Source of the DNA: a virus
Lineage: Duplodnaviria; Caudoviricetes
Strand: one strand, 5' to 3'
DNA: 64,000 nt
IMG/VR virus record: IMGVR_UViG_3300027708_000016
Part shown: one piece after another, positions 48,060 to 63,889 of the stretch
Numbering within the stretch: the first letter of the stretch is position 1
How the letters are laid out: each line of letters starts with the position of its first letter
The notes under the pieces: generated by a model
Told to the model about the DNA's origin: nothing
The model's input: the letters and a program-made list of their open reading frames with translations, nothing else
Databases searched by the model: none
Made by a program: the position numbers and the translations under genes

Positions 48060-48079
48060 GACTCTTGGAGTTGGATCGA

Positions 48080-48259: not shown

Positions 48260-48299
48260 TGTTTTGTTTGTGGTGAGGAGGTTGTGCCTCACGAAAGAC

Positions 48300-48469
48300 A
48301 TACTAGGGAACTGCCCTACTCCGTGCAACTACAATCGTGGGAATCTTTGCGTAAGACGCTCATACTATTCTTGGTCTGGGTATCAGCGTCTTACGCAGCA
48401 GTCTGGGGCAACGGGTTGGTGGAGTCATCGGTGCAGAAAAAAACCCCGACCCATTTCTGGATCGGGGTT
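48300..48469 (-). promoter_or_regulatory. Cassette head 1: terminator - GCGTAAGACG dyad - promoter
   Basis: Dyad 48349/48387 (28-nt gap); TTGCAC-17-TAGTAT with -35 20 nt from motif. Confidence 0.85.
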
Positions 48470-48490
48470 GTCTTGGAAGACGCAGTTATA

Positions 48491-48688
48491 TTATCCCATG
48501 ATGGAGCAATACTTCTTGAAGTCTATTACTCCCTTGAGATAGGAAGCGACAGCGACTTGCTGGGCGATGGGGAATCCCATGAGTTCCGCAGCAGTCAGAA
48601 GTTTCCAAGTGGAATACCTCTTTGCACTCTCTTTGGCATCGGTGAGGTTGCCATTGAGAAGGGAGACGATTGTGTTCCTTGGGTTCAT
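48491..48688 (-). CDS. Small hypothetical protein
   Basis: MNPRNTIVSLLNGNLTDAKE... Confidence 0.55.
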   Translation of the reverse strand: MNPRNTIVSLLNGNLTDAKESAKRYSTWKLLTAAELMGFPIAQQVAVASYLKGVIDFKKYCSIMG

Positions 48689-48689
48689 A

Positions 48690-48893
48690 TTACTTGGAGA
48701 CGAAGGGTGTTTGTGCGAAGGAGACATCGTTCCAATGGAAGGAGACGCATCCCCATGAGTTAGCTTCAAAGAAAGCGGCATGGTGGACAACGGATTGATG
48801 TTGCCAGTAGAGGCTAGTAGCGAGGCAGTCCATCACGCAGATGATGCTGATGGTGAGGATGAGGAGGAGTGTTTCGTAGGTGGATGCTTTCAT
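48690..48893 (-). CDS. Small membrane protein
   Basis: N-terminal TM helix. Confidence 0.55.
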   Translation of the reverse strand: MKASTYETLLLILTISIICVMDCLATSLYWQHQSVVHHAAFFEANSWGCVSFHWNDVSFAQTPFVSK

Positions 48894-48931
48894 TTTAGTG
48901 GGTGGTGAGGAGGTTGTGCCTCACGAGTTAG

Positions 48932-49096
48932 AAGGTAGTGAAAGACGATGGAGGATGCAACAAGAATCGTGGGAATCTTTGCGTAAGACGCTGATATTTG
49001 TCAGGGGTATTAGCGTCTTACGCAGCAGTCTGGGGATGACGGATTTGTTGTCGAGGCACAAAAAAACCCCTACCACTCCGAAGAGCAGTAGGGGTT
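48932..49096 (-). promoter_or_regulatory. Cassette head 2
   Basis: Dyad 48981/49014; TTGCAT-17-TACCTT, 20 nt from motif; terminator about 49060-49096. Confidence 0.8.
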
Positions 49097-49114
49097 CCCC
49101 CTCTACTAAAAGTT

Positions 49115-49456
49115 TTAGGCGACTCCGAGGAGGTATTCCAGTTGAGCCATATACTTGTATGGGACGATGAATGCCCATCCTCCCTCGTGATGAGCATACC
49201 CGACTACTCGCACACCCGAAGCCTTGAAGAGGTTCGTGACGCAGACAAAGGAGTTATTGTCCATAGGGCAGATAACTCGCTTGTTGTTTCCCTGTTGAAG
49301 GGTGATGTATGCAGTTCCCAGTTCGCTCACGCCTGTCTTGGCAGTGACGATGATTCGTGCGTTTGGATCTCCGAAGAGATTGTAGTTCCTTCGCTTGCCA
49401 CCCATGTTCCAGTTGAGGATGGAATCATTGATGGTGTTGTTGTTGTATTGGTTCAT
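49115..49456 (-). CDS. Hypothetical protein
   Basis: Start refined to MNQYNN downstream of promoter and leader. Confidence 0.6.
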   Translation of the reverse strand: MNQYNNNTINDSILNWNMGGKRRNYNLFGDPNARIIVTAKTGVSELGTAYITLQQGNNKRVICPMDNNSFVCVTNLFKASGVRVVGYAHHEGGWAFIVPYKYMAQLEYLLGVA

Positions 49457-49493
49457 TTTAGTGGAGGTGAGAGGGTTGTTTCTCACGAATTGG

Positions 49494-49728
49494 ACTATGC
49501 AGGAAAGTGTGAGGCAGGGCAAGAAAAAAGTTTGGGATCTTTTGCGTAAGACGCTGATAGCTCCAAGGATTTTCAATGCGTAAGACGCTGAATCATAACC
49601 AGAAATCTTTTGCGTAAGACGTTGATATCCAAAACATTACTGGGTATTAGCGTCTTACGCAGCAGTCTGGGGGGTCGCCTAACATCCGAAAAAGACACAA
49701 AAAAAACCCCCACCTTTCGGTGAGGGTT
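49494..49728 (-). promoter_or_regulatory. Cassette head 3
   Basis: Motifs 49544, 49578, 49612 (+) and 49651 (-); TTGCCC-17-CATAGT; terminator about 49699-49728. Confidence 0.85.
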
Positions 49729-49750
49729 TCTTGGAAGTTAGTTGGCGATG

Positions 49751-49999
49751 TTAGTTAAGTGACTCGACCAGATCCTTGACCAGATCGACCCATGTGACTT
49801 CCGACTCGGTCTCCCAAGGAAGGGGCGCACCATGTTGATCCCAATACATCTGGAGGTAATGCTCCTTGGTCAGGTTGGGGTTTTGTCCGTCTCCGTTGCA
49901 CCAATCTTCGATCTCATTGTAGACCTTGGTTTCCAGTTCTGGCGACATCTGGCAGATGTTGCGACAGGCGATGTGGAACAGGATGGTTTGCTTTGTCAT
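49751..49999 (-). CDS. Hypothetical protein
   Basis: Single-gene cassette. Confidence 0.6.
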   Translation of the reverse strand: MTKQTILFHIACRNICQMSPELETKVYNEIEDWCNGDGQNPNLTKEHYLQMYWDQHGAPLPWETESEVTWVDLVKDLVESLN

Positions 50000-50037
50000 G
50001 GTAGTGGGTGGTGAGGAGGTTGTGCCTCACAGACATC

Positions 50038-50229
50038 AATCTAGCAGGGTCTCTGGACAGGGCAAGAACTTTCTGAAGAATCTTTGCGTAAGACGCTAAA
50101 ACCTTTTTGGGCAAGAGGTTGCGTAAGACGCTGTAAGTGTTATCGTCTTACGCATCGTAATGCGACACCATGTGTTATTGTAACACGCTGTTGTGGGGAA
50201 ACCCTCACCCTATTTCTAGGATGAGGGTT
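50038..50229 (-). promoter_or_regulatory. Cassette head 4
   Basis: Motifs 50086, 50121, 50144; TTGCCC-16-TG.TAGATT; hairpin CCCTCA/TGAGGG. Confidence 0.8.
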
Positions 50230-50255
50230 CTTGCTATCACCCCACTACGAGTAAA

Positions 50256-50516
50256 TTAGTAAAGGTGTGCTGTGGTCTCTGTCACCTTGTTGTTATTGAT
50301 CTTGTGTTCAAACATGATCTCCTTTGCAAACCCCCTCATGATGCAACGAGGTTGGCGTTTCTGTGCGTGAGTTTCAATATCCACTCCATGAGTCTTGACA
50401 TGGTGGACGATATGACAGACCTTCTCCCAGTGCATGGTAAGGACATTGCGACCTTGCTTGACGGACTCTGCCTTGTAGTAGTGGAAGAAGAAGCGTTTTG
50501 GTTTGAGTGTTTTCAT
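50256..50516 (-). CDS. Hypothetical basic protein
   Basis: FFFHYYK...HVKTH...QPRCIMRG. Confidence 0.6.
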   Translation of the reverse strand: MKTLKPKRFFFHYYKAESVKQGRNVLTMHWEKVCHIVHHVKTHGVDIETHAQKRQPRCIMRGFAKEIMFEHKINNNKVTETTAHLY

Positions 50517-50539
50517 AGTGGTTGTTGATTACGATTAAG

Positions 50540-50758
50540 AGAATACAACAAGCCTGTTGAAGTGCAAGAGAAATCTTCAGAAATCTTTTCAATCTTTGCG
50601 TAAGACGTTGATAGTAAATAATTTGCTAATAACAGCGTCTTACGCACGTGGCAGCACCCCGCTGCGGGTGGACACTCGTGGTAATGCGACACCATGTTTT
50701 GTTTTTTCAAAGTGTGCTATAAAAACAAAAGCCTCCCACCCCGAAGGATGGAAGGCTC
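50540..50758 (-). promoter_or_regulatory. Cassette head 5
   Basis: Dyad 50598/50636; TTGCAC -35 is 30 nt from motif; terminator about 50726-50758. Confidence 0.8.
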
Positions 50759-50781
50759 TTGCTGAAGGGTTGGAGGTTAGT

Positions 50782-51771
50782 CTATGCCACTAGAAGAATC
50801 TGTTCACCCCTTGCTTTGACTCTGTTGGTTTCCTTGTCATCGGTGAGAATGGAGAACCAATCCCTCTTGCTCTCACTAGCAGAACCGAACTCACTGGAAA
50901 CATATTGCTTCCAAGGATTCTTGTCTCCCCCAGAGGATTCATGGGAGAAGTAATCGGTTGCTCCACTGAAGAGATCAGCCATAGTCTTTCCCCTGTTGCC
51001 TTTGCCTGTCTTATAGAGATCCACTACCCTGTCCACCATGTTGATAGTGCGAGTTGAAACCTTTGTATCTGCTTCAAAGGTTGGAGGAGTGAGGATACCG
51101 AAGGTGATTTTCCTTGCTGTCTCCTCTTCACAATCCATGCTTTCCATAGAGTCCATTGCCATTTGGAACTCTCTTGTCACTCCATAGTGCCTGTCGATTG
51201 CCTCACTCATGCCATCCAATCTGTTTGCGGCATTCTTTGTGTGCTTGATTCTCATGTTGAACTCTCCTTTACGAGAGAGTGCAAGGGTGAGGGTGTTCTG
51301 ACACACGATGCAGGTGAGACCAGAGTTGGCAATCAGAGCAGAGATACCACCATGACCCCAAGTAATGTTGAGCATATTCTCATGCTCTCTGTTCCCTGCA
51401 ACAATGTTGTCGGAGAGTTTGATGGAAACAAATACCTTTGAACGAGAGCAGACGCTTCCCAAGGAAACTACCTTGTTCTGGGTTCCAATGAGTGCATCCT
51501 TGATCATGGATAGAACCTGTTCGTTGGTGATGAGACAATACTTGTCACTCACTGGATTGCCAATGGGCAGACCATTATCTAGAGAGACAATCTGTTTGAA
51601 GGGAGTCTCCACTTCATTCTCTCCGACCTTATAGGTGAGAGGGAGGGTGATCATGGGATAGGAGATTTCGCAATCCTCGTCGAGTTTGATTTCGGGCTTG
51701 ACCTTGGTGAGTCCGTGCCATGCTTGTTCGATTCCTACCTGTATGTCTGTGTCTTCAATCATGTGTGCCAT
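50782..51771 (-). CDS. DUF932 (TIGR03299 phage/plasmid-like) protein
   Basis: AWHGL, VSDKYCLITN, LGSVCSRSKVFV, VCQNTL, IKHT.NA, ATDYFSHE; start refined to MAHM. Confidence 0.8.
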   Translation of the reverse strand: MAHMIEDTDIQVGIEQAWHGLTKVKPEIKLDEDCEISYPMITLPLTYKVGENEVETPFKQIVSLDNGLPIGNPVSDKYCLITNEQVLSMIKDALIGTQNKVVSLGSVCSRSKVFVSIKLSDNIVAGNREHENMLNITWGHGGISALIANSGLTCIVCQNTLTLALSRKGEFNMRIKHTKNAANRLDGMSEAIDRHYGVTREFQMAMDSMESMDCEEETARKITFGILTPPTFEADTKVSTRTINMVDRVVDLYKTGKGNRGKTMADLFSGATDYFSHESSGGDKNPWKQYVSSEFGSASESKRDWFSILTDDKETNRVKARGEQILLVA

Positions 51772-51815
51772 CGTTGTGGGTGTCGGTTTGGTCAGTTGAC
51801 TCTTCTGTATTGCTG

Positions 51816-52022
51816 ATAATAGGGAAAACAAATCCATCTGCAAGAAAAATCTTTCAGCTAGGAATAGATTCTTTGCGTAAGACGTTGAAAGTAAATAGAT
51901 GTCCAGATAACAGCGTCTTACGCAGCCATCGAGGGCGGACGGGTTTGGGTGTCGAGTCATCGAGTTTGATCGAGACACAAAAAAAAACCCCCACCTTTCG
52001 GTGAGGGTCTTTGCGTAAGACG
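51816..52022 (-). promoter_or_regulatory. Cassette head 6
   Basis: Dyad 51875/51914, extra motif 52013 abutting terminator; TTGCAG..TATTAT, 31 nt from motif. Confidence 0.85.
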
Positions 52023-52032
52023 CTAGTAGGGT

Positions 52033-52482
52033 CTAGCCTATGGAGATGATGTTATCCATCTGAACCACGAAACAAGGTTTCGGGTTGGGTTTCTTGTTGC
52101 TCTCGGTGAGCATCCCCTGATACTCCTCCTTGGCAACCTCCTTGCCATCCACAAGGTATGTCACCTTGGGTGCTTGGATCACGCCCCCTGTTGCTGGGTA
52201 GAGGCGAAGGTAATCCTTCTCCTTGTGCGTGATGTGGAAAGGGAACTTTGCCCATGTTCCCCAAGGAAGAGGCTCAACTTCCCCCCTCTCCCCACGAGCG
52301 ATTGCCTCCTTCACTTCAGAGAGATTGGCATAATCAATCCCTGCACGAAACGCCCCAGAGGTGATCTTCTCAAGGGTATGCCCCTTGAACTCTTTGGCTG
52401 GCTTGCTCTCCGACTTGAACTCAACATGAACATGCTGTCCAGTGAGTGAACCGACTACCGACATGACTGCTTCTGATTTCAT
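52033..52482 (-). CDS. Conserved phage hypothetical protein
   Basis: RAGIDYANL, LPWGTW, YLRLYP; start refined. Confidence 0.6.
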   Translation of the reverse strand: MKSEAVMSVVGSLTGQHVHVEFKSESKPAKEFKGHTLEKITSGAFRAGIDYANLSEVKEAIARGERGEVEPLPWGTWAKFPFHITHKEKDYLRLYPATGGVIQAPKVTYLVDGKEVAKEEYQGMLTESNKKPNPKPCFVVQMDNIISIG

Positions 52483-52557
52483 CGTAGGTGATGTCTCCAG
52501 TTGTTCGATTGCTCCTGCCCCTCGTAGGTGATGGGTTGAGTCGCTTTCGATATAGTG

Positions 52558-52754
52558 AATGTAGTGGATCAATTCCCAAGGTGCAAGAAAAACCTTCGGA
52601 ATCTTTGCGTAAGACGTTGAAAGTAAAAAGATGTCCGAATAACAGCGTCTTACGCAGTTTCAGGAGGCACGGACGGGTTCAGGGTTAGGTTTCAGGATTG
52701 GATGAAGGCACAAAAAAACCCCCACCGATTTCTCGGTGAGGGTTGCGTAAGACG
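52558..52754 (-). promoter_or_regulatory. Cassette head 7
   Basis: Dyad 52607/52646, extra motif 52745; TTGCAC-17-TACATT, 20 nt from motif. Confidence 0.85.
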
Positions 52755-52762
52755 CTGGGAGT

Positions 52763-53416
52763 CTAGTGTTGCTTGTAATTCACTAGGTAGACATTCTTAT
52801 CCCAACAGGCTCGACATGATCCGCAGACATTCCCTTGTGAGGGTGCAGGGCAGGTATAACCAACAGCAGAGGAAACGCCCGACACTTGAACGCCTAGTCT
52901 TTTTGCGATTGCATCGGGTGTCTTTCCGTCAATCATAAGAGCAGAGAGACGAATGCAGAGATTTTCTGGGATAGTGTTTCCCTCTTTCTCTATGTAGTCG
53001 CTGACGATGGAGTATTCCCTAGTAGGAAGCCAGAACTTGATAAAGGGAAGATTCTTTGCCACTTGGCAAATCTTTTCCAAGTGCCAAGTGCCTTGCAAGT
53101 CTCCGCTATCGTGCCAGCGAAAGAATCCGCTTTTCTCTTTCTTGGAAATCAGAAAGGTGATTGCCTCCGTCCACCTAGGATCTAAAAGGGAGGCAAAACG
53201 CTTTTCCATAGCTTCAATGACATTCTGGAATATGTAACGCCCCTTGCAAGCATAACACTTCTCGCAAACCGAACCGACGATTTTGCGTAGGATGCTTCCG
53301 ATCTTGCAACGAAAAGCAGGGGTGTTGTATGAGTAGCCTGGCATTTTTGAAGGTGCCGACAGGGTGTGAACGATTGCCTCCGCTTGCTTGGCAGTTTTTA
53401 AGGTAGTGGTTGTCAT
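52763..53416 (-). CDS. GP88-like putative Fe-S protein
   Basis: SKMPGYSY, C..G......VCEKCYA, FRWHDSGD, WLPTRE, CPA......CGSCRACW. Confidence 0.8.
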   Translation of the reverse strand: MTTTTLKTAKQAEAIVHTLSAPSKMPGYSYNTPAFRCKIGSILRKIVGSVCEKCYACKGRYIFQNVIEAMEKRFASLLDPRWTEAITFLISKKEKSGFFRWHDSGDLQGTWHLEKICQVAKNLPFIKFWLPTREYSIVSDYIEKEGNTIPENLCIRLSALMIDGKTPDAIAKRLGVQVSGVSSAVGYTCPAPSQGNVCGSCRACWDKNVYLVNYKQH

Positions 53417-53424
53417 AGGGCATC

Positions 53425-53675
53425 AACATAGCAAAGTCGTTGGAGGGTGCAAGAAAAATCTTCGGAATCTTTGCGTAAGACGCTAATACTCCAATCCTAG
53501 AATCCCCCAGAAGGATTCCCCCTACGGGGGAATCCTTTATGCGTAAGACGTTGATAGTAGGATATTTATAAATAACAACGTCTTACGCACAGGTCTGGGG
53601 TTGCCCGTAGTAAGACGAATTCTTACTCATAAGGCAAAGAAAAACCCCTTGAATAGGGAATATGTATTCAAGGGG
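53425..53675 (-). promoter_or_regulatory. Cassette head 8
   Basis: Motifs 53473, 53541, 53579; 12-bp hairpin aaggattccccc/gggggaatcctt between them; TTGCAC..TG.TATGTT, 20 nt from motif. Confidence 0.85.
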
Positions 53676-54539
53676 TAAGGCAAACTCCTACCGACTAGGA
53701 GTTTATGTTGTTTTTCTTCTATGCATTTTCGTCTTCTGGATGTTTTTCCCTGCAATAAGTTGCTACTCCTGCATCATAACCCCACTTGTATTGAATGTGG
53801 GAGATGGCATTCTTTTCTCCATCGTAAGGATTATTCTCTACTCCTTGGATATACCCATCGTTGAAACCACGGACATATGATTTGGTATTTGGGTTTGGGT
53901 GTGTCATAATCCGTGGATCTTGATGTGGTGTTGGATTGCCTCTACCAATTCCTTTAGTTTATTATTTGGAACTGATAGTGCGTGTTCAAACCTTTCATCA
54001 TCATGCCTAATGTTGAAGTTTGTATATTCATCAAATTCTTCGGAGATTTCGATGACAAGATCTTTTTTTTCTTGGTATCCTATATCCATAATGATACTGG
54101 TTTTGATTTTCATTTAGTGTATTATTGGTTGGGTTTGTTTTTTTGTGGTAATGCCGCACCATGTTCTATTAAAACACACTTTGCATTTGAACTTTAGTTT
54201 GTATTGAGAGCTTTGATATCTTTACCCACAGAGAAGGAGATGAGTAAAGAACCCAATACTACAAGCATTGGATACTTTGACCAGTTCTCTTCTTCATGGA
54301 GGGCATCCAATAGATTCTTGATCTTCTGGGTTTGTTGTTTTGTCATATCTTTGTATTGTCCACAACATTGTCAAACTTGTCAAGCAACTCCTGTAGATCA
54401 GGATCGTTGACGTAAACTCTCTCAATGTATTCATAGAGTTCATTTGCTGTATCGATTATATTTATTGTTTTTGTTTGTAGATGAAAGTATTCACGAATCA
54501 TTGCTTTCCTCGTGAGATCTTTGTATTGGAGTTCTGTCA

Positions 54540-55151
54540 TTATTCATCATCCTCGTTTTCCTCTTGGCAGTCAAGGAAATACTGGACATCCAACTCCTCC
54601 TTCAAATGTTCTGGGCAATCATCAATATCATCATAGCAGTTGTCACTCTCTGATCCATCTGCATTGACAAAGTATTCTCCTCCGAACATCCAACCCTCAT
54701 CGTAGTAACTCATACGAAGGGACTCACCCGTAAGCTTTGCAAGTTCTCTGATGACATTAATCGGAGGACTCCATGCCGTTTGAAATCCAACGTCTGAAAG
54801 ATCATCAATCTCGTTGAAACCATCTTCCAAGGTATAACAAGAGTATGCATTCCATTTGGTGTCCCAGTTGGCAACACTCCAATCATACCAAGATTTGAAT
54901 CCATAATCCTTTTCATTCTGCTCTTGTAAAAGATCATGTGCTTTCTGTCTTGCTTCTACTTCTTCTGGTGTCCTTTCCTTGGTGATCTCTTCAACGGAAG
55001 ATGAGTAACAAGTCTTTAGGATTCCTTCTGGCATGGGGAGGATCTTGTTGAAGTCAATACTCTTGCCATCATCTGTAAGATAAGGTTTGATGATTGATCC
55101 GATGGTCTTTCCACTAGTGCAGGAAAGGAGGTTGGTGCAATGGTTAGGCAT
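54540..55151 (-). CDS. DUF1281/YubB ferredoxin-like domain protein
   Basis: MPNHCTN, WYDW..NWDTKWNA, FQTAWSPP, YYDEG..F.G. Confidence 0.82.
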   Translation of the reverse strand: MPNHCTNLLSCTSGKTIGSIIKPYLTDDGKSIDFNKILPMPEGILKTCYSSSVEEITKERTPEEVEARQKAHDLLQEQNEKDYGFKSWYDWSVANWDTKWNAYSCYTLEDGFNEIDDLSDVGFQTAWSPPINVIRELAKLTGESLRMSYYDEGWMFGGEYFVNADGSESDNCYDDIDDCPEHLKEELDVQYFLDCQEENEDDE

Positions 55152-56652: not shown

Positions 56653-57234
56653 TCAATCTTTGGATTTCTTTGTAGCGTAAGACTTCCAGATCGTCAAATC
56701 CAAATCGGCAGGAGTCATCTGGTGAATAATTGCTTCTTGCAAGAACAACTTCTCAATCTCTGCGTATTTCTTTTTCGGAGGAGTTGCTTTAGGAATACTC
56801 TTATATCCCTTCTCACTCATCCACTTCAAGATGTGTGTATCAAGCACAGCAACATTGGCATCTGGTCGAGAGTGAAGGATAAAGAAACGAGCAGTCTTTG
56901 ATCCGATACCTTTGATGCTCTCCAGTTGTTCGATGGTGACCTTGGACAAACGACCTTTGAACTTGAGGATCTCCTTGAATGCATGACCGATCCTTTTGTA
57001 TTGACCTAGCTTAAACTCCTTCATCTGGATCTCAAGCCACCCCATGCTAGACAGACGAGAAATAAGAGCAAAGGGTTTGCCTTTCTCCTTATGCATACAA
57101 TGTTTGAGGAAAGCATCTAGCTTCCTTGCCTGTTGCTCTGCTCCTTTGCCAGCAACGAGGATTGCGAACATAAGGAACTCTTCCAGTTCAGCTTCGGTGC
57201 GATTATAGTTGGTGATGGTGGTTGGTGTGATCAT
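56653..57234 (-). CDS. HhH-GPD base-excision DNA glycosylase-like protein
   Basis: LESIKGIGSKTARFF (HhH), VAVLDTHILKW, DLTIW. Confidence 0.85.
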   Translation of the reverse strand: MITPTTITNYNRTEAELEEFLMFAILVAGKGAEQQARKLDAFLKHCMHKEKGKPFALISRLSSMGWLEIQMKEFKLGQYKRIGHAFKEILKFKGRLSKVTIEQLESIKGIGSKTARFFILHSRPDANVAVLDTHILKWMSEKGYKSIPKATPPKKKYAEIEKLFLQEAIIHQMTPADLDLTIWKSYATKKSKD

Positions 57235-57239
57235 AGGTA

Positions 57240-57653
57240 TTAGAAACTAGCGATTGCTTTGATTGTGTCAAGTCTTTTTGATTCGACTTTCCAACTATCT
57301 GTAATTCTCTGGAGAGGAGTATTTGTCAGATGGTCGTATATGATGCCATCAATGATAGCAAAGGCATGACCACGACGACGAACCAAGTAGCGACCAGTTG
57401 GGTATCTTTCAAGGAATTTTTGGATGGTTATAGGTTTGTGTTTCATCTTGCGAAGACTGATACCATGCTTCTTTGCTGTCAAGGCTAATTTTTCGGTATG
57501 AAATCCACGACCAGTTTTTCTTCCTGCGGCTTTTCCTATTTCAAAAGCTTCATTATAGGGAATGCCAGCAGATGTGGACAATGCACAGATGGTGCAGTTG
57601 TTGTTGTCTTTGATACCAGAATCTTTCTCTGGTGTAACTCTGATGTGTTTCAT
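57240..57653 (-). CDS. Conserved phage protein with Cys...His pattern (possible papain-like fold)
   Basis: DNNNCTICALS..., GHAFAIIDG; start refined. Confidence 0.5.
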   Translation of the reverse strand: MKHIRVTPEKDSGIKDNNNCTICALSTSAGIPYNEAFEIGKAAGRKTGRGFHTEKLALTAKKHGISLRKMKHKPITIQKFLERYPTGRYLVRRRGHAFAIIDGIIYDHLTNTPLQRITDSWKVESKRLDTIKAIASF

Positions 57654-57682
57654 TGGTAGTAGTTTGGTTTGGTTTGGAAATA

Positions 57683-57822
57683 TGCCAAGAACTTTCTGCA
57701 CCAACCTTTGCGTAAGACGTTGAAAGTAAAATATATTTAAATAACAACGTCTTACGCAGTTTACGGGCTGCGGCTGCGGGAACCTTTCGAGGCACAAAAA
57801 AACCCGTCGAAATCGACGGGTT
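57683..57822 (-). promoter_or_regulatory. Cassette head 9
   Basis: 13-bp perfect dyad 57710/57748; terminator ACCCGTCG-AAAT-CGACGGGT; promoter weak. Confidence 0.75.
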
Positions 57823-57829
57823 AAAATTG

Positions 57830-57901
57830 TGGGATCGTCGAGACTCGAACTCGAAACCAATTCGTTAAAAGCGAACTGCTCTACCATTGAGCTACGATCC
57901 C
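57830..57901 (-). tRNA. tRNA-Lys(UUU), no encoded CCA
   Basis: GTTCG-CTTTTAA-CGAAT. Confidence 0.92.
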
Positions 57902-58144
57902 ATCGGTATCCTTATATCTTTGGATAAATTGTATTTTTAAGCAATGCCAAAATATCCTCGTTCAATACCTGAAGGAGTATAGGCGCATCAAAAAAAGCAA
58001 AAAGGTGTTCACCAACCAGAAAAACCCTATACTTACCTTTGTATTCATTTTTAAGTTCGACAACGAACTCCTGAGACATTTGACTAGAGATATGTCTTGC
58101 AGTATTCATTTGTCTATTGTAAAGATTTTTTAATTTATTGTCAA

Positions 58145-58219
58145 TGGTGCTTTCAGTAGGAATCGAACCTACATTTGATCTTTAGAAGAGATCAGTCCTA
58201 TCCGTTGAACGATGAAAGC
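58145..58219 (-). tRNA. tRNA-Arg(UCU)
   Basis: GATCT-CTTCTAA-AGATC; CCA. Confidence 0.92.
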
Positions 58220-58227
58220 ATATTGAC

Positions 58228-58300
58228 TGCCCTCGGAGGGATTCGAACCCCCAACCAATCAGTTATGAGCCGACTGCTCTGACCATTGAGCTACAAGGGC
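58228..58300 (-). tRNA. tRNA-CAU (Ile2 or elongator Met)
   Basis: GTCGG-CTCATAA-CTGAT; canonical D- and T-loops. Confidence 0.88.
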
Positions 58301-58823
58301 GAAGGTTCTAAAGTTCTATTGGAATGTCATGGAGTTCTGAACCAATAGGAATGTTTTTATTGTCTGTTCCATTGTTTCCGAACAAGTCATCTGTTGGTTC
58401 AAAGATCCCCCTTTTTGGAGAATAGTAATCATCCTTTGAAGTGATTAGAGATTCAACCCAACTCTCATCTTCCGCCCAAGGGTTGCTCTTTGGAAGATGA
58501 ACCCTGTATGCGTAAGACATAGTTAGGAGAGTAGGAACTCATAAAGGTTTCCAACAATCAGGCGATTGTCATTGGTGATTAGTGCATTCTCCAACTCATC
58601 GTAGAAAATGACTGCTTTGTTTCCACCGATAACAATGTCTGGTAGACCTTCATCGTAGGTTGCATCTCCGTTCCAGTAATCGACTTCAATATCGAAAACT
58701 TTGTTTCCTGCTTCATCGAGAGTATAACCTTGGATGTTTTTTGCTTCCTTGATCTTCTTGACAATCATCTGGGTGTTTGTCAGAAGTTGCTCTCCATCTT
58801 CATCAATTATTGTTGACATTGTA

Positions 58824-59915
58824 TTAGTTCTTCTTTGTGAATTTACCAAGGGCATCCCTCAAGTTGTGGAAGAGAGATCCATCTGGCTTCTTGCCATACT
58901 GGTTGTCATCAGAGTGACAAGATCCACCACAACAAGTTGTCTCCTCGGTTTGAGTGTATCCACACTTCTTGTCAAGGTAATCATTGAAGGTTGGCTCATC
59001 ACAAAGACCAGCATCTTCAACATCCCTGCATGACCCACAACGAGATTTCTCGTAGTCATCATAAGTGTTAGTGAGATCAGTTCCACAGATAGTGCAGAGT
59101 GCTGGCTCATCGTTGTCCTTGTCCTCGTAGTCTCCACCATCGGAGGAGTAGAGATCGGAGTCGAATCCGTTCTCTCCACGACCCAACTTCTCCCTCCAAT
59201 TCTCGGTGTATTCAGCGATCACCTCATACTTGCAAGTGCGACCCTTGGTGTTGTTGTAGTCAGCAGGGATAGCAACTACATCCTTGGGATTGATCTTGAC
59301 GATCATGGTCTTGCCTCCGTTGCTGTCAGAGAAGTGAGGGAGATACTTGATGGAGCAGAAGTGCAAACCATAAGAGCAAGTGCGATCCTTGTCCTCATCC
59401 ACCTTGTAGCGAGGCATCTCACACACCTTGCCAACAGAGTTGTCAAATGATCCAGAGTGAATGTCCTTGTAGTCAGCACGAACATTCTTGAAGGCGAGGA
59501 AGAATCCATCCTCGGTGATAGGCAACTCTCCAACATCAAGGAAGTCATACAACTCATTGACTGCACGATAGGAGGAGTTCTCCATCAAGTTGTAGAGGAA
59601 ATTGAGCAAAGGCTTGAATGGCAAGTCCTGTTGCATGAAGGAGATCACCCTCTTGGTGAGAGTATTGTGAACTGGTTCTCCCTTATAGACGATGATGCCA
59701 TCAAGGATCTGGACATCGGTGTTGAGAACGAAGTCCCTCACCTTACGAGACAGATCGACTGCATCAAGGAAAGCATCCCAATTCTGTGCTTTGACAGCAT
59801 CAAGAGCTTTGGTGTAGTTTGGGTGAGTTTGGTCAATCGTGTAGATTGCCCCGTTGATACAAGCAGAGATTTTTCCCTGTCCTGTAATGGTGACTGCATT
59901 GTTGGTGTTATTCAT
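58824..59915 (-). CDS. rIIB: RIIB-like protein
   Basis: HPNY, FL.NLMEN.S..AV.ELYDFL, PITEDG.FLA.K.V, DNSVG, CS.GLH.CS..Y, K.RTC.YEV. Confidence 0.92.
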   Translation of the reverse strand: MNNTNNAVTITGQGKISACINGAIYTIDQTHPNYTKALDAVKAQNWDAFLDAVDLSRKVRDFVLNTDVQILDGIIVYKGEPVHNTLTKRVISFMQQDLPFKPLLNFLYNLMENSSYRAVNELYDFLDVGELPITEDGFFLAFKNVRADYKDIHSGSFDNSVGKVCEMPRYKVDEDKDRTCSYGLHFCSIKYLPHFSDSNGGKTMIVKINPKDVVAIPADYNNTKGRTCKYEVIAEYTENWREKLGRGENGFDSDLYSSDGGDYEDKDNDEPALCTICGTDLTNTYDDYEKSRCGSCRDVEDAGLCDEPTFNDYLDKKCGYTQTEETTCCGGSCHSDDNQYGKKPDGSLFHNLRDALGKFTKKN

Positions 59916-59953
59916 ATAGTGATACTACTTTGTTTTGTTTGGGTTGTCAATAC

Positions 59954-61936
59954 TTATTTTTCTAGTTTCTTTGCGAGGAGAAGATACATCTGTTGATCGT
60001 CTCCATAAGAACCTAACAGATTAGAGAGAAGGAAGTCAAGTGCTTTATCTGCCATCTTGAAAGTATCTCCCATAACCTTTTGATCCAAGAAGGGAAGAAC
60101 ATTCTGGACTTTCTCATACTTATTACCAAGTGACTTGAGCTTGACAAGCATCTGCTTAATGAGGTTGGAGTCATCAAGGTCTTTATACTCTTTATGAGCA
60201 ACAATGTCATTGATCCTGTGCCTTGCGTAAGACGATATAACCCCTACCTCCTCCATGTCAACCCAAGTAAGGTCATGCTCCCTGTTGAACCATTCAATGA
60301 AGTCTTGACTTCCCCTTGCCTTGAGCTTCTTTGCCTCCTTCTCGGTGACAAGAACAACCTCATTGATATTGATAGTAAATGCTTGACAATAGGTGCGAAG
60401 GCGATCCTTGTCTTGGATCAGGCGAAGATTATTGAGCTTGACATTCAACTCCCATGTCTTTCCCTTGAGAATATAATACTTGGGGATATTTGTGCATGAT
60501 GGTTCGATTGTCCTTGACTCCCAAGAGACATTGTAGGTAGCCCCAATCTCGTAGCAAGTGATGTCCTCTTTAGCCTTGATAACGATTGTTCCGTTCTTGA
60601 GCTTCCTCTTGGCAGTAGGAGAAGGCAAAGAGGAAGCAGATTTGAATACATCGGGGAAACCAACCTCCAACATGGACTGCTTCTGTTCTTGGGTGAACAA
60701 GATAGCACAGGTATCACTTGTATCACGAATGAGCATCTTGATACGAGCAAATGGATTCTTACATCCTCCATCATCGTAATACCATTCAAACTTCTTATCG
60801 AAGCTGAAGGATGTGCTGGTGTTCACCTGCTTCCTGTATGAGTAGCGAGAGAAGGACTGAATAGAAGTCTTGAGAATATCCTTGACAAACTTGTGGGGTT
60901 CACTGATGTCGTAACCTTTATACACGACATCCTTCATCTCAAATGCTTGGTTGCCATAGAAGGAGAACCTCTCTTGGAAAGCTCCTAATGCCCTGATGCT
61001 GTCAAGGATATTATCCTTGGATACGATCTGATCCTTTGCCTTGTGTTTGATCTCTGTCAAGACTTTTTCCATCTTGTCATTGATAGCCTTGATAGTGGCA
61101 TCGTCATAGGAGAGATGCTCACGACTTGGAGCAAAGTCCAACTCACCCATAGCAAACTTGAGAACCACACCCTTGCGAACAATCTGGTTATACTTGTCAG
61201 CAACCTTGTAGTGGTCGATAGGATAGGTGACTCCACCCATGATTGCAAATGCCTCCCATTGTGTAGAGGAATCCAAGAACATCCAATCCTCACCAGAGAA
61301 CATAGGTTTCTCCTCTGACCAATAGCACACTCCACCAGAGGTAGTTGGCTTGACATCGAAGAAACGAAATGCTTTCTGGACTGATTTGATAAACTCATTG
61401 AAGTCTTTCTCCTTGACAGGGATCTGGACAGCAACTCCGTTTGACTCGCTAGTGTTCTCCTGACTCATCAGAGCAATCGTAGGGTTGCCATCTTGAGCAA
61501 AGTAGGCATTGTAGATTCTCTTGACTCCATCATGGATAGAGGTGACAGAGAAGTTGTCCGTATAACAGAAGGGAGACTTTGACCCAAGACCCAAGCATCC
61601 AATCTGATCGTTGGTGTTGGTCTTTGTGGACTCAAAGTAGGTGGAGTAAATGTCGTAGATGTTCTGGTGAGAGATCCCTGTTCCAAAGTCTTGAATGGTG
61701 ATCCAAGGCTCAAGAGAGTTGGGAAGGTGAATATGGAAAGGTTGATCCTTCTTACCAGAGGCAACCATTGAGTCATTAGCGTTGCATCCCAACTCCCTAA
61801 CGATTGCCAGAGGCTTATCGGAGTAGAGGTCAGAGAGGATCTGGAAGGCTTTACGAGAGGACTTCATCTTGAAGGAGGAAGTCTCGGTGATGTTTCCGAT
61901 CTGTTCGATTTGATTAGGTGTGTCGAGTAGTTTCAT
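59954..61936 (-). CDS. rIIA: RIIA-like protein (N-terminal GHKL/HATPase fold)
   Basis: KAFQILSDLYSDKPLAIVRELGCNA.D, QDFGTG, STK..TNDQIG.LGLGSKSPF.YTD; upstream of rIIB. Confidence 0.93.
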   Translation of the reverse strand: MKLLDTPNQIEQIGNITETSSFKMKSSRKAFQILSDLYSDKPLAIVRELGCNANDSMVASGKKDQPFHIHLPNSLEPWITIQDFGTGISHQNIYDIYSTYFESTKTNTNDQIGCLGLGSKSPFCYTDNFSVTSIHDGVKRIYNAYFAQDGNPTIALMSQENTSESNGVAVQIPVKEKDFNEFIKSVQKAFRFFDVKPTTSGGVCYWSEEKPMFSGEDWMFLDSSTQWEAFAIMGGVTYPIDHYKVADKYNQIVRKGVVLKFAMGELDFAPSREHLSYDDATIKAINDKMEKVLTEIKHKAKDQIVSKDNILDSIRALGAFQERFSFYGNQAFEMKDVVYKGYDISEPHKFVKDILKTSIQSFSRYSYRKQVNTSTSFSFDKKFEWYYDDGGCKNPFARIKMLIRDTSDTCAILFTQEQKQSMLEVGFPDVFKSASSLPSPTAKRKLKNGTIVIKAKEDITCYEIGATYNVSWESRTIEPSCTNIPKYYILKGKTWELNVKLNNLRLIQDKDRLRTYCQAFTININEVVLVTEKEAKKLKARGSQDFIEWFNREHDLTWVDMEEVGVISSYARHRINDIVAHKEYKDLDDSNLIKQMLVKLKSLGNKYEKVQNVLPFLDQKVMGDTFKMADKALDFLLSNLLGSYGDDQQMYLLLAKKLEK

Positions 61937-61962
61937 GGGTTGTTTGGTTGGTGTTGAAGATG

Positions 61963-62210
61963 ACAATATACAAAACCATTCCCCATGCAACAAAAATTTT
62001 CACCAACTTTTGCGTAAGACGCTGTTATTAGATGTCCAGTTACCTTGCGTAAGACCTTGAAAGTAGTCATATAATACTAACAACGTCTTACGCAGCGGCG
62101 GATAGAACGCAAATGTTTAGAATTTTTGTTGGTTTGGTTTCTTACATTGTTTTTGAAAGTAATGTAAAAAACAAAAAAAACCCCAACCACCGAGCGAGGT
62201 GATTGGGGTT
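61963..62210 (-). promoter_or_regulatory. Cassette head 10
   Basis: Motifs 62012, 62047 (variant), 62084; TTGCAT..TATTGT, 21 nt from motif; terminator about 62175-62210. Confidence 0.8.
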
Positions 62211-62971
62211 TGCTCTTGCAACCGAATTGTTGCTTATTTCTTCTTCCTATTACAAGTCCACTTACCGAGGCTGTCACGACGATTGTGATAGCGGCACATG
62301 AGCTTCATCTTGCCAAACTGATTGACTGCTCCAAGAAGGCTATACCGAGAAGTATTGATCTCCTCCATGACTACTGCCTTCTTCACATCAGTTGGAAGAG
62401 TATTGAATCCCCCGATATACGAGAAATCTTTAACTACGATTGTGTTATTGGTCATTATTATTTCACCTCCTTTTGTTTGTATTGAAAAATTATCCTACAA
62501 AAGAACCATCCTTGTTCATGGATATGCCCCTTGCCTTTGCTCTCTTGTCAAGTCTCTTGGCACGACAGGTTGCAATCTCTTCCCTCTCCTTTTGTGAAAG
62601 GTTAAGAAGATCATACTTGGTTTCCTTGTCTAGCTTGTGCCAGACGGATTCCGTTTTCATTACATTTTTAGCTCTCCAGATCATTTATATATTATGCACT
62701 AGGTGCGTTAGAATGTCAATAGTATTGTTTTTATTGTTTTAGGGATGGAAGTCCTCTGGAAGTCCATTAGGTAACTGCTCATGCCTCGTCCTCCTCTACT
62801 TCTTCCAAGGTTTCAACCTCGTATTCAGCATTGCCAGATCCCCATAGTGCCTCCATAGCGATTTCAATGGCATTATCGTATGCCTCCTCTTCGTTGTTTG
62901 CCTCCACATCAAAAGACATGGAATCATAGGTTGTGCGAGTGACTTCGACTTTGTATGTTTTCTTCATAGGT

Positions 62972-63313
62972 TTAGGGTTCTAGGTTGATGTAGATTTGCT
63001 CTTTGTTGAGATCCCACAGCATATCGACAAATGCTTTCCATTCCTCCTTGGTGCAAGTATCTATTTCCTCCCCATCCTCATCGTTAATACCAGAAGAGAA
63101 CCACTCATAAGCATCGTCAATGAAACGAGCGAATCTCTCCCCTGCTATCAGAGTCAGATTGTTATCCCCATAGGAGAAATCTGGATTTGCACTCCCTAGC
63201 ATATCCCAGAACCAATCCCATTCCGCAGGGACTAGATCGGTTAGGTCTACTACTTTTACTTCTCTTGGTGTTGGTGTTGTCATGTGTCTAGCTTTTAGTT
63301 GTTCTTCAGCCAT
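62972..63313 (-). CDS. Acidic hypothetical protein
   Basis: D/E/W-rich; FSYGDNNLTL. Confidence 0.6.
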   Translation of the reverse strand: MAEEQLKARHMTTPTPREVKVVDLTDLVPAEWDWFWDMLGSANPDFSYGDNNLTLIAGERFARFIDDAYEWFSSGINDEDGEEIDTCTKEEWKAFVDMLWDLNKEQIYINLEP

Positions 63314-63483
63314 TGGCGAAGAGGTTTGACTCCCAAATCCCCCCTGTGGAAGAGATGGAATGGTTTGGTTGGATCGGAAGGGAACAAGGAGAACTTGTTA
63401 CCCTTACGGACTATTCTGATCCCCCTACTGATAGCAAGATCAATAAGGGAATCAAACTCTTTGGAGTGGTGTTTGCGGCTCAT
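63295..63483 (-). CDS. Small protein with HicA-like (dsRBD-type) pattern
   Basis: LIDLAISRGIRIVRKGNKFSLFP...HRGDLG..PLRQWLK; start refined to ATG at 63483. Confidence 0.4.
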   Translation of the reverse strand: MSRKHHSKEFDSLIDLAISRGIRIVRKGNKFSLFPSDPTKPFHLFHRGDLGVKPLRQWLKNN

Positions 63484-63493
63484 AGCGACTCTC

Positions 63494-63723
63494 ACAATAT
63501 AGAAAACATTCCACAGGTCAAACATTTTTCTGACCTATTTTTGCGTAAGACGTTATTACTAGTGCCGCCAGAAGTTTGCGTAAGACGTTGTTACCCAGAC
63601 AAAGGATTTTACAAAGTCTTTTAACATCTTACAATTACTTGCAATGTCTTCAGATGTCTTCAGAAGTCTTTCGCCTCGGAGCGAATCATTTCTGAAATAT
63701 CCACTATATTTATCGTCTTACGC
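63494..63723 (-). promoter_or_regulatory. Cassette head 11 (first promoter of the module)
   Basis: TTGACC-16-TATTGT, 21 nt from motif 63543; further motifs 63578, 63714. Confidence 0.8.
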
Positions 63724-63807: not shown

Positions 63808-63889
63808 AAGTCGTTAGAAGTCGTTAGAAGTCGTTAGAAGTCGTTAGAAGTCGTTAGAAGTCGTTAAAAGTCGTTAGAAGTCGTTAGAA
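63808..63889 (+). repeat. 10-bp tandem array, right border
   Basis: (AAGTCGTTAG)x8; reverse complement core AACGACTTCT. Confidence 0.95.

Follow-up and report, generated by a model that had tools for sequence, protein, structure and literature searches.

Accessory-gene shuffling in T4-like phages is generally attributed to promoter-early stem-loop (PeSL) junctions, which have been described as plain terminator–promoter repeats. Temporal control in T4 itself involves MotA boxes at −30 that replace the −35 element (the rIIA and rIIB genes have such promoters), and PmSL variants occur in phage nt-1, although we know of no MotA counterpart for many environmental T4-like phages. PeSL elements were characterized in T4-type phages by Arbiol et al. 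2010 (PMC2839356) and Comeau et al. 2014 (PMC4122927). The locus described here resembles them in that a terminator stem-loop, an A+T-rich stretch and a sigma70-like early promoter are repeated between small accessory ORFs, in its position in the hyperplastic region of a T4-like genome, and in the insertions, deletions and ORF replacements that separate close relatives, with a consensus that varies by phage group. It differs in four respects: in the published elements, no invariant motif or dyad separates the stem-loop from the promoter, whereas here an 11-base, usually paired site is the best-conserved part and is swapped per sub-lineage; the heads lack a Shine–Dalgarno part; crossovers fall at the motif rather than at the promoter or A+T-rich part; and the invariant 11-mer within the junction, TGCGTAAGACG, is previously undescribed.

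The window (the whole 64,000-nt stretch of DNA that was analysed) derives from an uncultured freshwater T4-like phage and contains ribonucleotide reductase genes and 17 tRNA genes; gp43, gp46, uvsX and TATAAATA-type late promoters are presumably present in the same genome. The sites occupy its GC-richer early module, in which rIIA and rIIB were identified among approximately 30 small ORFs of mostly unassigned function. The module cargo comprises, among others, DUF932, a GP88-family protein, an Api92-like domain, rIIA/rIIB and a first gene that is HicA-like, a set suggestive of anti-defence or takeover roles. We found 34 exact copies of GCGTAAGACG in the window, 33 of them in the 16-kb module (47903–63723), and five further copies with one mismatch; approximately 0.5 would be expected with one mismatch allowed, and the observed count was reached in none of 100 shuffles. 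Elsewhere in the window, early promoters come close to consensus (TTGACA-N17-TAGAAT) and carry no site.

Eleven minus-strand heads share one order of parts—terminator, forward (distal) site, spacer, reversed (proximal) site, −35 and −10:

48300–48469, minus strand: head 1, before the ribbon–helix–helix (RHH) gene; terminator 48442–48469, distal 48387–48396, proximal 48349–48358, −35 TTGCAC 48323–48328, −10 TAGTAT 48300–48305
48932–49095, minus strand: head 2, before genes 48690–48893 and 48491–48691; terminator about 49058–49095, distal 49014–49023, proximal 48981–48990, −35 TTGCAT 48955–48960, −10 TACCTT 48932–48937
49494–49732, minus strand: head 3, before gene 49115–49456; terminator 49701–49732, distal 49651–49660, three reversed sites in direct repeat at 34-nt spacing (49612, 49578, 49544), −35 TTGCCC 49517–49522, −10 CATAGT 49494–49499
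50038–50225, minus strand: head 4, before gene 49751–49999; terminator-like hairpin about 50190–50225, distal 50144–50153, reversed 50121–50130 and 50086–50095, −35 TTGCCC 50060–50065, −10 TAGATT 50038–50043
50540–50747, minus strand: head 5, before gene 50256–50516; terminator 50732–50747, distal 50636–50645, proximal 50598–50607, −35 TTGCAC 50562–50567, −10 TATTCT 50540–50545
51816–52022, minus strand: head 6, before the DUF932 gene 50782–51771; terminator 51983–52012 directly abutted by an extra reversed site (52013–52022), distal 51914–51923, proximal 51875–51884, then 31 nt to −35 TTGCAG 51838–51843, −10 TATTAT 51816–51821
52558–52754, minus strand: head 7, before gene 52033–52482; terminator 52717–52744 directly abutted by an extra reversed site (52745–52754), distal 52646–52655, proximal 52607–52616, −35 TTGCAC 52581–52586, −10 TACATT 52558–52563
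53425–53659, minus strand: head 8, before the GP88-family gene 52763–53416; terminator 53645–53659, perfect 14-bp dyad 53541–53550/53579–53588, reversed 53473–53482, −35 TTGCAC 53447–53452, −10 TATGTT 53425–53430
57661–57822, minus strand: head 9, before gene 57240–57653 and downstream of tRNA-Lys; terminator 57801–57822, perfect 14-bp dyad 57710–57719/57748–57757, −35 TTGGCA 57683–57688, poor −10 57661–57666
61963–62211, minus strand: head 10, before rIIA 59954–61936 and rIIB 58824–59915; terminator 62178–62211, distal 62084–62093, reversed 62047–62056 (one mismatch) and 62012–62021, −35 TTGCAT 61985–61990, −10 TATTGT 61963–61968
63494–63723, minus strand: head 11, module start, first gene ATG at 63483; lone forward site 63714–63723, a conserved 130-nt stretch, reversed 63578–63587 and 63543–63552, −35 TTGACC 63516–63521, −10 TATTGT 63494–63499

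This agrees with the repeated cassette head that a sequence-only reading had described, except that the terminator precedes most heads and not the first one, at the module start. Each head holds one to four copies of the site between terminator and promoter. Pairs are mostly inverted and 38–39 bp apart (arm-to-arm distances of 23, 33 or 37–39 bp in this phage), and their spacers span the 13–29 nt given earlier (27–29 nt in 8 of 10 pairs; 57–89% A+T); the perfect 14-bp dyads were likewise recovered at 53541–53588 and 57710–57757. In nine heads (57710 and the eight already listed) the proximal site ends 20–21 nt before the −35, and in exactly the two heads previously singled out (50598 and 51875) it ends 30–31 nt before it, giving site centres at −59.5 to −61.5 or at −69.5/−70.5, respectively, with the transcription start assumed 7 nt after the predicted −10. 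The stretch between site and −35 consists of two or three 10-nt AAGATTnnnn-like units (three in the 30 nt of head 5), which accounts for the additional helical turn of the two longer heads. The promoters are sigma70-type and sub-consensus (approximately 3/6 matches to TTGACA and 4/6 in the −10); of the two −35 forms proposed, TTGCAN stands and, together with TTGCCC, covers most heads, whereas TTGACC occurs once. No GGAGG-type site precedes the starts, and leaders are approximately 30–70 nt with a hairpin, or absent; the missing Shine–Dalgarno sequence reflects the translation style of the host rather than another kind of element. At head 7, two RNA libraries have contigs with ends at 52538 and 52541, 10–13 nt inside the predicted start (approximately 52551). 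RNA-library contigs span genes and end before heads, and 0 of 13 pieces in 47.9–53.75 kb overlap a dyad, with contigs being sparse.

The invariant 11-mer is preceded by T in 33 of 33 sites, and conservation reaches approximately 17 bp (TGCGTAAGACGyTGwTA). At the position where a C would make GCGT-AAG-ACGC a full palindrome, only 17 of 33 sites have C, the others having T (11) or A (5), so that the site is asymmetric apart from its CGT..ACG core, and the pseudo-palindrome proposed earlier had to be abandoned. A dimer on GCGT-N3-ACGC is not indicated, as a single site is a poor palindrome; what survives of the suggested dimeric co-regulator is a putative sequence-specific one. Direct-repeat sites, 34–35 bp apart, are not on one helix face. 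Further sites lie outside the heads:

47903–48010, minus strand: distal module border with three forward sites (48001–48010, 47950–47959 and 47903–47912) after the terminator of the last gene, without inverted partners; the same trio follows the RHH gene in the relative L104
56203–60234, minus strand: sites inside coding sequence at 56203 (one mismatch in the 10-mer), 56675, 58510 and 60225, all in the reversed (proximal-type) orientation

The site at 56203 encodes GLTQ, with the same codons in the relative L070 and four other synonymous codons in the relative G001; that at 56675 lies 24 nt ahead of the TTGACA-N17-CATACT promoter of the next gene.

Across seven heads orthologous between the window phage and L070, the arms are identical at 180 of 180 positions, compared with 1,274 of 1,629 (78%) in the rest of the heads and 83% identity in rIIA. 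Arm-to-promoter spacing is free of indels between the two phages, whereas indels are common between terminator and distal arm. Sequence comparison thus supports strong selection on the sites. Arm conservation would also be expected from selection for recombination or mobility, a point against an operator role. Eleven related contigs (rIIA 50–83% identical) share the architecture and carry, at the same place, six dyad motifs:

Motif class A: GCGTAAGACG
Motif class B: GGGTAAAAT
Motif class C: TTGTAATACCTTT
Motif class D: TTTGCATAAT
Motif class E: CTTGTTGGAAAG
Motif class F: TTTAGAAGAT

Both arms change together between classes, and complementarity is always kept. Classes E and F have a 15-nt spacer with a conserved ATGAATCTT between variable arms; arm-to-arm distance is 24 bp in these two classes and 34 bp in class C, and distal arms are degenerate with mismatches in classes B and D. 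The distance from arm to predicted −35 is 25 nt in L003, 27–50 nt in L006 and 31–60 nt in L009, and differs by 5 and 13 nt between orthologous heads. The class I phasing at −61/−71 advanced in the sequence-only reading, judged from predicted starts, fits the window phage and L070 but not classes B, C, E and F. Neither a rigid dimer nor a strictly phased activator finds support, given that arm-to-arm distances vary in this phage and between classes and arm-to-promoter distances vary in relatives.

These comparisons bear on whether a host factor—a CRP-like class I activator or an IHF-like bender—switches on the earliest promoters ahead of all phage protein synthesis. Immediate-early activation logically requires a factor already in the cell, site centres near −60/−70 and a weak −35 suit class I activation, and three arms, taken together with their inner flank, fit the IHF consensus WATCAANNNNTTR (TATCAACGTCTTA). 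That consensus, however, fits only 3 of 33 sites, phasing is lost in relatives, and phages with 72–83% identical rIIA from similar freshwater metagenome sources have unrelated motifs. A search of 185,579 bacterial and archaeal genomes, one per species, gave 29 single chance-level matches, at most one dyad per genome and no genome with a set. Scans of metagenomes likewise gave single chance-level matches, several dyads occurring only in strains of this phage. With six motifs in close relatives and no bacterial genome carrying the dyad set, we judge a host factor very unlikely.

The kept complementarity could also point to structure, with the dyads acting as cruciforms or as hairpins in single-stranded DNA or in RNA; they might, for instance, be hot spots of recombination at which a junction-resolving enzyme cuts, or serve the processing or stability of read-through RNA. 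Single-strand stems of 11–14 bp have folding energies of −10.6 to −16.9 kcal/mol (z-scores of −3.2 to −9.3), the A+T-rich spacers favour melting, and arms that covary between classes, around the conserved ATGAATCTT in classes E and F, look like a constant loop on a stem that covaries. Yet co-variation of arms is predicted by a homodimer-type operator too, loops of 22–29 nt make extrusion from duplex costly, and the dyads follow strong terminators and precede promoters, none being covered by the RNA contigs listed. Many functional-looking sites stand alone or in direct repeat (49544/49578/49612, 63543/63578 and the three border sites); these, together with the degenerate distal arms of classes B and D, are easier to reconcile with protein sites than with hairpins. 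A structural role, including the cruciforms raised as an alternative earlier, is in our view quite improbable.

Between strains, entire cassettes are present or missing, and the junctions lie at the arms or next to them. L034 carries an extra 356-bp cassette with atcagcGTCTTACGC on both borders, inserted exactly at the last site of head 3 as verified base by base, and the locus downstream of gene 50256–50516 holds three different cassette sets in the window phage, L034 and L104, all class A strains. An allelic ORF swap in L034 leaves heads and terminators identical, and gene identities to relatives are mosaic. The module heads are PeSL-type cassette junctions of a T4-like phage; the earlier reading overlooked both such junctions and the insertions and deletions of strain cassettes at arms. 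The arms might then serve cassette exchange without any role in transcription, as the core of a PeSL junction or as a REPIN/MITE-like palindromic element, through homologous recombination on short identities or a putative site-specific enzyme. Besides the exact L034 borders, the three cassette sets, the ORF swap and the mosaicism, this is consistent with the reversed arms at 52013 and 52745, which adjoin terminators as if joined there, with the lineage-specific inverted doublets and singletons, which recall REP/REPIN elements, and with the PeSL-mediated mini-circles documented in T4-type phages (PMC2839356, PMC4122927). Exchange by homology, however, needs no invariant 11-mer between genomes that differ by 22% around the site, and would leave unexplained the fixed distance to the −35 that survives substitutions. 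Moreover, the sites keep to a single module and are not dispersed, G001 (121 kb, approximately 54% complete) gave no match to a Y1 transposase or a tyrosine recombinase (PF01797, PF00589), and published PeSL crossovers use promoter and A+T-rich parts with no dedicated motif. A role in recombination only is, on balance, unlikely.

A sequence-specific protein is the best reading, given the strong selection, the kept promoter spacing and an RHH gene in the module:

48083–about 48262, minus strand: last module gene, 59–60 aa, RHH fold from AlphaFold2 and structural matches

The model (mean pLDDT 81) has an extended N terminus and two helices. Its top structural matches (6iya, Z 5.5; omega 2bnw and 1irq, Z 5.4; then ParD, PutA and Arc) are nearly all RHH proteins, almost exclusively repressors and antitoxins, compared with no RHH match for a helical control protein; no Pfam match was obtained for the gene product. 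The RHH gene co-occurs with motif A in the window phage, L034 and L104/L105 and was found only in motif-A phages. It is absent from the class B module (G001), no RHH-like counterpart was found in classes B to F, and none of the module proteins compared across motif classes tracks motif class. The reader either differs from class to class or is encoded outside the DNA examined. For this lineage, the foremost candidate for a reader of the site is the RHH protein.

We lean, with slightly better than even confidence, towards operator-like sites for a lineage-specific phage-encoded protein that are also recombination junctions. Under this model, the heads would be PeSL-type composite terminator–promoter junctions separating small gene cassettes; a phage-encoded DNA-binding protein, for which the module's own RHH is the leading candidate, would co-regulate the sub-consensus sigma70-type promoters of the module via the sites; and cassettes would also recombine in and out at the sites, as these are the longest identical stretches common to all heads. 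An RHH reader would close a feedback loop, in which shut-off or autoregulation would be likelier than initial activation. The analysis establishes the sites with their geometry and conservation, the replacement of the motif in relatives, the cassette polymorphism at the sites and, from a structure prediction, an RHH fold in the module; that a protein binds, which one it is and whether it activates or represses are what we infer here. That a dedicated site changes as a set between sub-lineages implies a matching, co-evolving reader.

Should that reader be a regulator, the heads would represent a new circuit for early-gene control in T4-like phages; were the site chiefly a label for recombination, the free movement of cassettes inside a lineage, despite borders specific to it, would be accounted for. 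A broader and rather doubtful proposal is that freshwater T4-like phages label each promoter-bearing early cassette with a private, fast-diversifying dyad code, each read by a cognate phage factor, the label setting how cassettes are expressed and which of them are compatible in recombination. Relatives with 50–83% rIIA identity show at least six such codes. A lytic phage would thereby have an integron-like economy of cassettes that bring their own promoters, and possibly a functional stand-in for the MotA/AsiA middle-mode switch; as the cargo resembles anti-defence or takeover functions, the code may decide which counter-defence genes a phage acquires and expresses. The six motif–architecture pairs form a natural specificity-swap set.

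Beyond PeSL elements, the heads share features with several known systems. N4-type hairpin promoters, read by the virion RNA polymerase, have a 5–7-bp stem and a 3-nt loop and extrude under supercoiling, in contrast to the stems of 11–14 bp and loops of 22–29 nt found here. Integron attC arrays and REP–REPIN elements with their RAYT are similar in their one-directional array of small cassettes, imperfect inverted repeats, crossovers at a conserved core, and lineage-specific repeats in doublets and singletons; here, however, the cassettes carry their own promoter and terminator within one module of a lytic phage, and no integrase or Y1 transposase was found in the 121 kb of G001 (approximately 54% complete). 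As with MotA, a phage-specific motif upstream of the −10 marks a temporal promoter class in a T4-like phage, but the −35 is present and the site lies 20–30 nt further upstream; a search of the 121-kb G001 for a MotA/AsiA homologue gave no match, but neither did the search controls, which makes this negative uninformative. CRP class I sites, at −61.5, −71.5 and so on, contact the alpha C-terminal domain of RNA polymerase. The heads, whose weak −35 and −10 elements would suit dependence on an activator, resemble them in site centres at approximately −60/−70 from the predicted start in two classes one helical turn apart, a weak −35 and an A/T-tract between site and −35, and differ in that the site is not symmetric, the extra turn is an extra 10-nt repeat unit, phasing is lost in relatives and no activator is known for these sites. 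RHH repressor arrays (omega of pSM19035, structures 1irq and 2bnw; CopG; Arc) differ in that omega heptads are contiguous 7-bp units, whereas the sites here are 11–17 bp and 23–39 bp apart, and in that the RHH is missing from relatives with the same architecture and other motifs; they are alike in having a small RHH protein encoded in the regulated block and short direct and inverted sites upstream of several promoters, which fits co-ordinate control and autoregulation.

The module (the 16-kb rIIA/rIIB early gene block, approximately 47.9–63.7 kb) has a G+C content of 43.7%, above that of the A+T-rich window (32.5% G+C), in which there are 17 tRNA genes and genes for ribonucleotide reductase. 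All module genes lie on the minus strand; besides rIIA and rIIB, they include genes for DUF932, GP88-family, Api92-like domain and Ogg-like HhH proteins, three tRNA genes and about twenty small open reading frames (ORFs) without family. A nucleotide search with the module against 50,697 phage records gave no match. Of sampled words of this DNA, 97–98% are present in six freshwater metagenome runs, and parts of it are present in lake metatranscriptomes.

59954–61936, minus strand, rIIA
58824–59915, minus strand, rIIB

Eleven heads (the junctions preceding a gene or small operon, named by their promoter-proximal site) share one order of parts on the minus strand: an intrinsic terminator, 35–45 variable bases, a forward site, a spacer of 13–29 nt (27–29 nt in 8 of 10 pairs; 57–89% A+T), a reversed site and a core promoter (−35 of TTGCAN type, 16–17-nt spacer and −10 TAnnnT). 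The reversed site lies 20–21 nt from the −35 in nine heads and 30–31 nt in two, so that the centre of the proximal 10-mer is at −59.5 to −61.5 or at −69.5/−70.5 (start assumed 7 nt past the −10). The coordinates and counts that the sequence-only reading gave for the heads stand, and 57710 is one more head of the 21-nt kind. Two or three AAGATTnnnn-like units of 10 nt make up the DNA from the proximal arm (one site copy) to the −35; the extra helical turn claimed for the two longer heads is present and equals one additional unit.

The site itself is concentrated in the module: exact copies of the 10-mer GCGTAAGACG number 34 in the 64-kb window, 33 of them in 47903–63723, where there are five additional copies with one mismatch (about 0.5 expected with one mismatch allowed). 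The sole exact copy outside the module (6450–6459; about 0.1 expected) lies within a methyltransferase-like ORF (6240–7223) and may be due to chance. The 10-mer is preceded by T in 33 of 33 copies and followed by C (17 copies), T (11) or A (5); conservation extends beyond it as yTGwTA, giving a full unit TGCGTAAGACG(yTGwTA). The site unit is therefore asymmetric (TGCGTAAGACGyTGwTA), and the palindrome GCGT-AAG-ACGC of the earlier description is complete in only half of the copies. When the eleven paralogous heads are compared column by column, conservation is highest at the arm and the next AAA and exceeds that at the TTG of the −35. The arms of inverted pairs (dyads) are 38–39 bp apart from centre to centre in 7 of 10 cases (23, 33 and 37 bp in the remainder), reversed sites are also arranged as direct repeats 34–35 bp apart, and further sites stand outside pairs as follows.

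52013 and 52745, single sites, each immediately before a terminator
63714, single site at the module start
47903–48010, trio of single sites after the last module gene
Four single sites inside coding regions, all in reversed orientation

The consensus of integration host factor (IHF) is matched by only 3 of the 33 sites. Inspection for a promoter pointing either way (sigma70, extended −10, ECF-type, sigma54, or MotA box plus −10) showed inconsistent spacings and inconsistent key −10 bases, and these readings were set aside. Within the perfect dyad 53541–53588, the A+T-rich spacer holds, at 53555–53572, TATAAATA, the T4 late-promoter box, on both strands. Core promoters of the module are weak (about 3/6 matches in the −35 and 4/6 in the −10). 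Seven early promoters outside the module (14243–17529) are near consensus (TTGACA-N17-TAGAAT); they have a conserved spacer containing CCTCCTC, adjoin start codons (leaderless) and carry no GCGTAAGACG site, and the genome therefore contains two kinds of early cassette junction.

Contigs of four lake metatranscriptome libraries map to module genes. The 13 RNA pieces in 47.9–53.75 kb all remain inside predicted transcription units, clear of every dyad. In two independent libraries contigs end at 52538 and 52541, 10–13 nt inside the predicted start of head 52607, although contig ends are no proof of starts and the libraries may contain carried-over DNA. Several module leaders contain a hairpin with loop CACAACCU (48273–48292 and 48905–48924, with similar ones before 49456 and 49999), as does a leader in the related contig L003 (approximately 21290–21315), with a compensatory change in the stem (GUGAGG/CCUCAC in the window versus AGAAGG/CCUUCU in L003). 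Its loop and 3′ arm include CCUCC, which is anti-Shine–Dalgarno-like, and the start codons have no Shine–Dalgarno site.

The rIIA gene has many metagenomic relatives, and we compared ten contigs around rIIA and two around the last module gene. In L070 (rIIA 83% identical), the motif of the window occurs in 20 copies, all within the module and in orthologous heads. Across seven aligned window and L070 heads, the arms are identical at 180 of 180 positions and the other 1,629 columns at 78%; indels are frequent between terminator and distal arm and almost absent from proximal arm to −35 (save 1-nt shifts in two heads). In the alignment, this arm identity and the rarity of indels between arm and promoter show that purifying selection acts on the arms and, within this lineage, on how far they lie from the promoter. 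Relatives outside class A have the same architecture with other motif sequences.

Motif classes among relatives of the module (rIIA identities are to the window)
Class A, GCGTAAGACG: window, L070 (rIIA 83%), L104/L105
Class B, GGGTAAAAT / ATTTTACCCAA: L003/G001 (rIIA 80%), L006 (78%)
Class C, TTGTAATACCTTT: L071 (rIIA 77%), L103 (63%)
Class D, TTTGCATAAT: L072 (rIIA 74%), L007 (72%)
Class E, CTTGTTGGAAAG: L009 (rIIA 57%)
Class F, TTTAGAAGAT: L102 (rIIA 50%)

In every relative, the motif again lies in this module, with a terminator on one side and a sigma70-like promoter on the other, often as an inverted pair of which the promoter-proximal arm is the better conserved. Arms of classes E and F are 24 bp apart, with a 15-nt spacer having ATGAATCTT in common; its reverse, AAGATTC, forms the unit after the proximal arm in class A. 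The fixed promoter distance first described is kept in class A but not in classes B, C, E and F, in which the distance from arm to predicted −35 is inconstant (25 nt in L003, 27–50 in L006, 31–60 in L009, 11–43 in L103 and 25–52 in L102); between orthologous heads of L003 and L006 it differs by 5 and 13 nt. For a footprint comparison at the rIIA head, the class B and C regions are not orthologous and the class D pair is too similar. That arms co-vary between classes, and that single strands of the dyads would fold well, is what a hairpin or cruciform function would predict; against it count the size of the loops (22–29 nt), the number of sites that are single or in direct repeat, the degeneracy of distal arms and the placement of the dyads outside transcripts.

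Binding by a host factor is disfavoured, given the motif turnover among close relatives and the lack of a matching site set in any bacterial genome scanned. With one genome per species, 185,579 prokaryotic species gave 29 matches to the class A dyad and metagenomes gave 57, all of them single and, by our own estimate, at about chance level; across the viral, metagenome and genome collections scanned, several dyads per sequence occurred only in contigs of the same phage.

Cassettes are gained, lost and replaced at or beside the arms. Contig L034 is 99.7% identical to the window across 4.7 kb and has an extra 356-bp unit (571–926; promoter, 65-aa zinc-ribbon ORF, terminator and dyad) inserted exactly after arm 49544, with atcagcGTCTTACGC at both borders. 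L034 also has a diverged allele of the ORF at 49751–49999 between a near-identical head and terminator (81% identity overall for this stretch). L104 (class A; last-gene protein 88% identical) has the zinc-ribbon cassette and lacks that of 49751–49999; the window, L034 and L104 therefore represent three cassette sets at one locus, with junctions at or beside arms. In this zinc-ribbon cassette (L034 571–926; L104 approximately 470–830) the ORF is Cys-rich, with a TTG start and a strong Shine–Dalgarno site (AAAGGAGG) unlike the genes around it, which have none, as if the cassette had been acquired from elsewhere. Identities of module proteins to relatives are mosaic: the 62-aa ORF at 62779–62967 encodes a protein 100% identical to that of G001 between neighbours at 58–87% and is absent from L070, which suggests, from sequence identity, a recent exchange between phages with different dyad motifs. 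Were the sites to serve cassette exchange alone, this turnover would be explained, but the fixed promoter distance in class A and the sharp conservation of the 11-mer between diverged genomes would not, and Y1 transposase and integrase profiles had no match in G001 (half a genome).

Both ends of the module have further features. The first gene (63295–63483; 62 aa from the ATG at 63483) is kept in all motif classes and by eye resembles a HicA toxin (KGNKF..F..HRG..G.KPLR), with no Pfam or PHROG match. The DNA that separates the lone first site from the first promoter (63590–63723; L070 7823–7970) is conserved between window and L070 far above typical heads; it contains a hairpin TTCGCTCCGAGGCGAA, repeated TGAAGAC(A/T)TC units, TTGTAAGAT/TTGCAAGTAA units and promoter-like matches on both strands, and may encode a small RNA or serve as a control region where the module starts. 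Tandem arrays of 10-base period flank the module in inverted orientation (47736–47792 and 63808–63889); one flank has (AACGACTTGT)x3 and the opposite flank (AAGTCGTTAG)x8. In the window, G001 and L104, a similar palindromic region of GTACCCCCTATAGGG type occupies the distal border. Immediately beyond this border, on the opposite strand, the window and G001 have an HNH homing-endonuclease gene (47136–47741; G001 28982–29608) that is 35% identical between them, flanked by genes at 65–84%.

A candidate reader of the site is encoded by the last module gene (48083–48259). Its AlphaFold2 model (mean pLDDT 81) has an extended N terminus and two helices, and a structural comparison with 48,161 chains put ribbon-helix-helix (RHH) DNA binders almost exclusively at the top, led by CopA_SO (6iya, Z 5.5) and omega (2bnw and 1irq, Z 5.4), with ParD, TacA, PutA, TraM, Arc and ParG further down. 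These Z values are modest, as expected at about 50 residues. RHH proteins were absent from the matches of a helical control protein; Foldseek returned no match for the model, the RHH matches coming from a wider structural aligner. In 5.8 billion sequences, the protein has a single relative, in class A contigs, where it is also the last module gene and is followed by three forward sites.

The class B module end has no RHH gene, and no RHH-like or other DNA-binding family was found in the modules of classes B to F; as a reader, the protein is therefore reasonable in class A alone, and we regard its assignment as the reader in this lineage as tentative and rather doubtful. The best candidate by eye elsewhere (L009 16447–16596) folds as a generic helical hairpin without RHH matches. 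Pfam and PHROG scans of all module ORFs returned no DNA-binding family, no module protein family tracks the motif classes, and identity patterns led us to reject the GP88-family protein, the 149-aa protein and the HicA-like first-gene family as readers. Small genes immediately upstream of the module in relatives are coiled-coil-like. MotA and AsiA profiles had no match in G001 (half a genome), but the controls of both profiles were also silent. A general reader, if any, would either vary, as a small protein, from class to class or be encoded beyond the DNA examined.

We lean towards the sites binding a protein. In the mechanism that we consider most likely, the heads would insulate each cassette, with a terminator in front and its own promoter behind, and would carry operator-like sites for a lineage-specific phage protein. 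Once bound, this protein could help to recruit RNA polymerase, as the sequence-only reading proposed, given the sub-consensus promoters and a proximal site placed about 20–30 nt upstream of the −35 behind an A/T-tract; repression by feedback, or a timed shut-off, would be more natural if the reader were the RHH protein made from the last cassette. The identical sites would also be the crossover points for cassette gain and loss.

Cassette turnover of this sort is known for the promoter-early stem-loop (PeSL) elements of T4-type phages (PMC2839356, PMC4122927), at whose junctions cassettes are gained, lost and replaced as at the heads of this module, and the heads are very probably PeSL-type junctions. 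A dedicated site, its dyad form and its exchange among at least six motifs are undescribed in those PeSL papers or in the searchable literature, where the motif strings matched unrelated primers only. The kind of element is thus known from PeSL, and what the module adds to it is a dedicated site, arranged as a dyad, with at least six alternative motifs among relatives.
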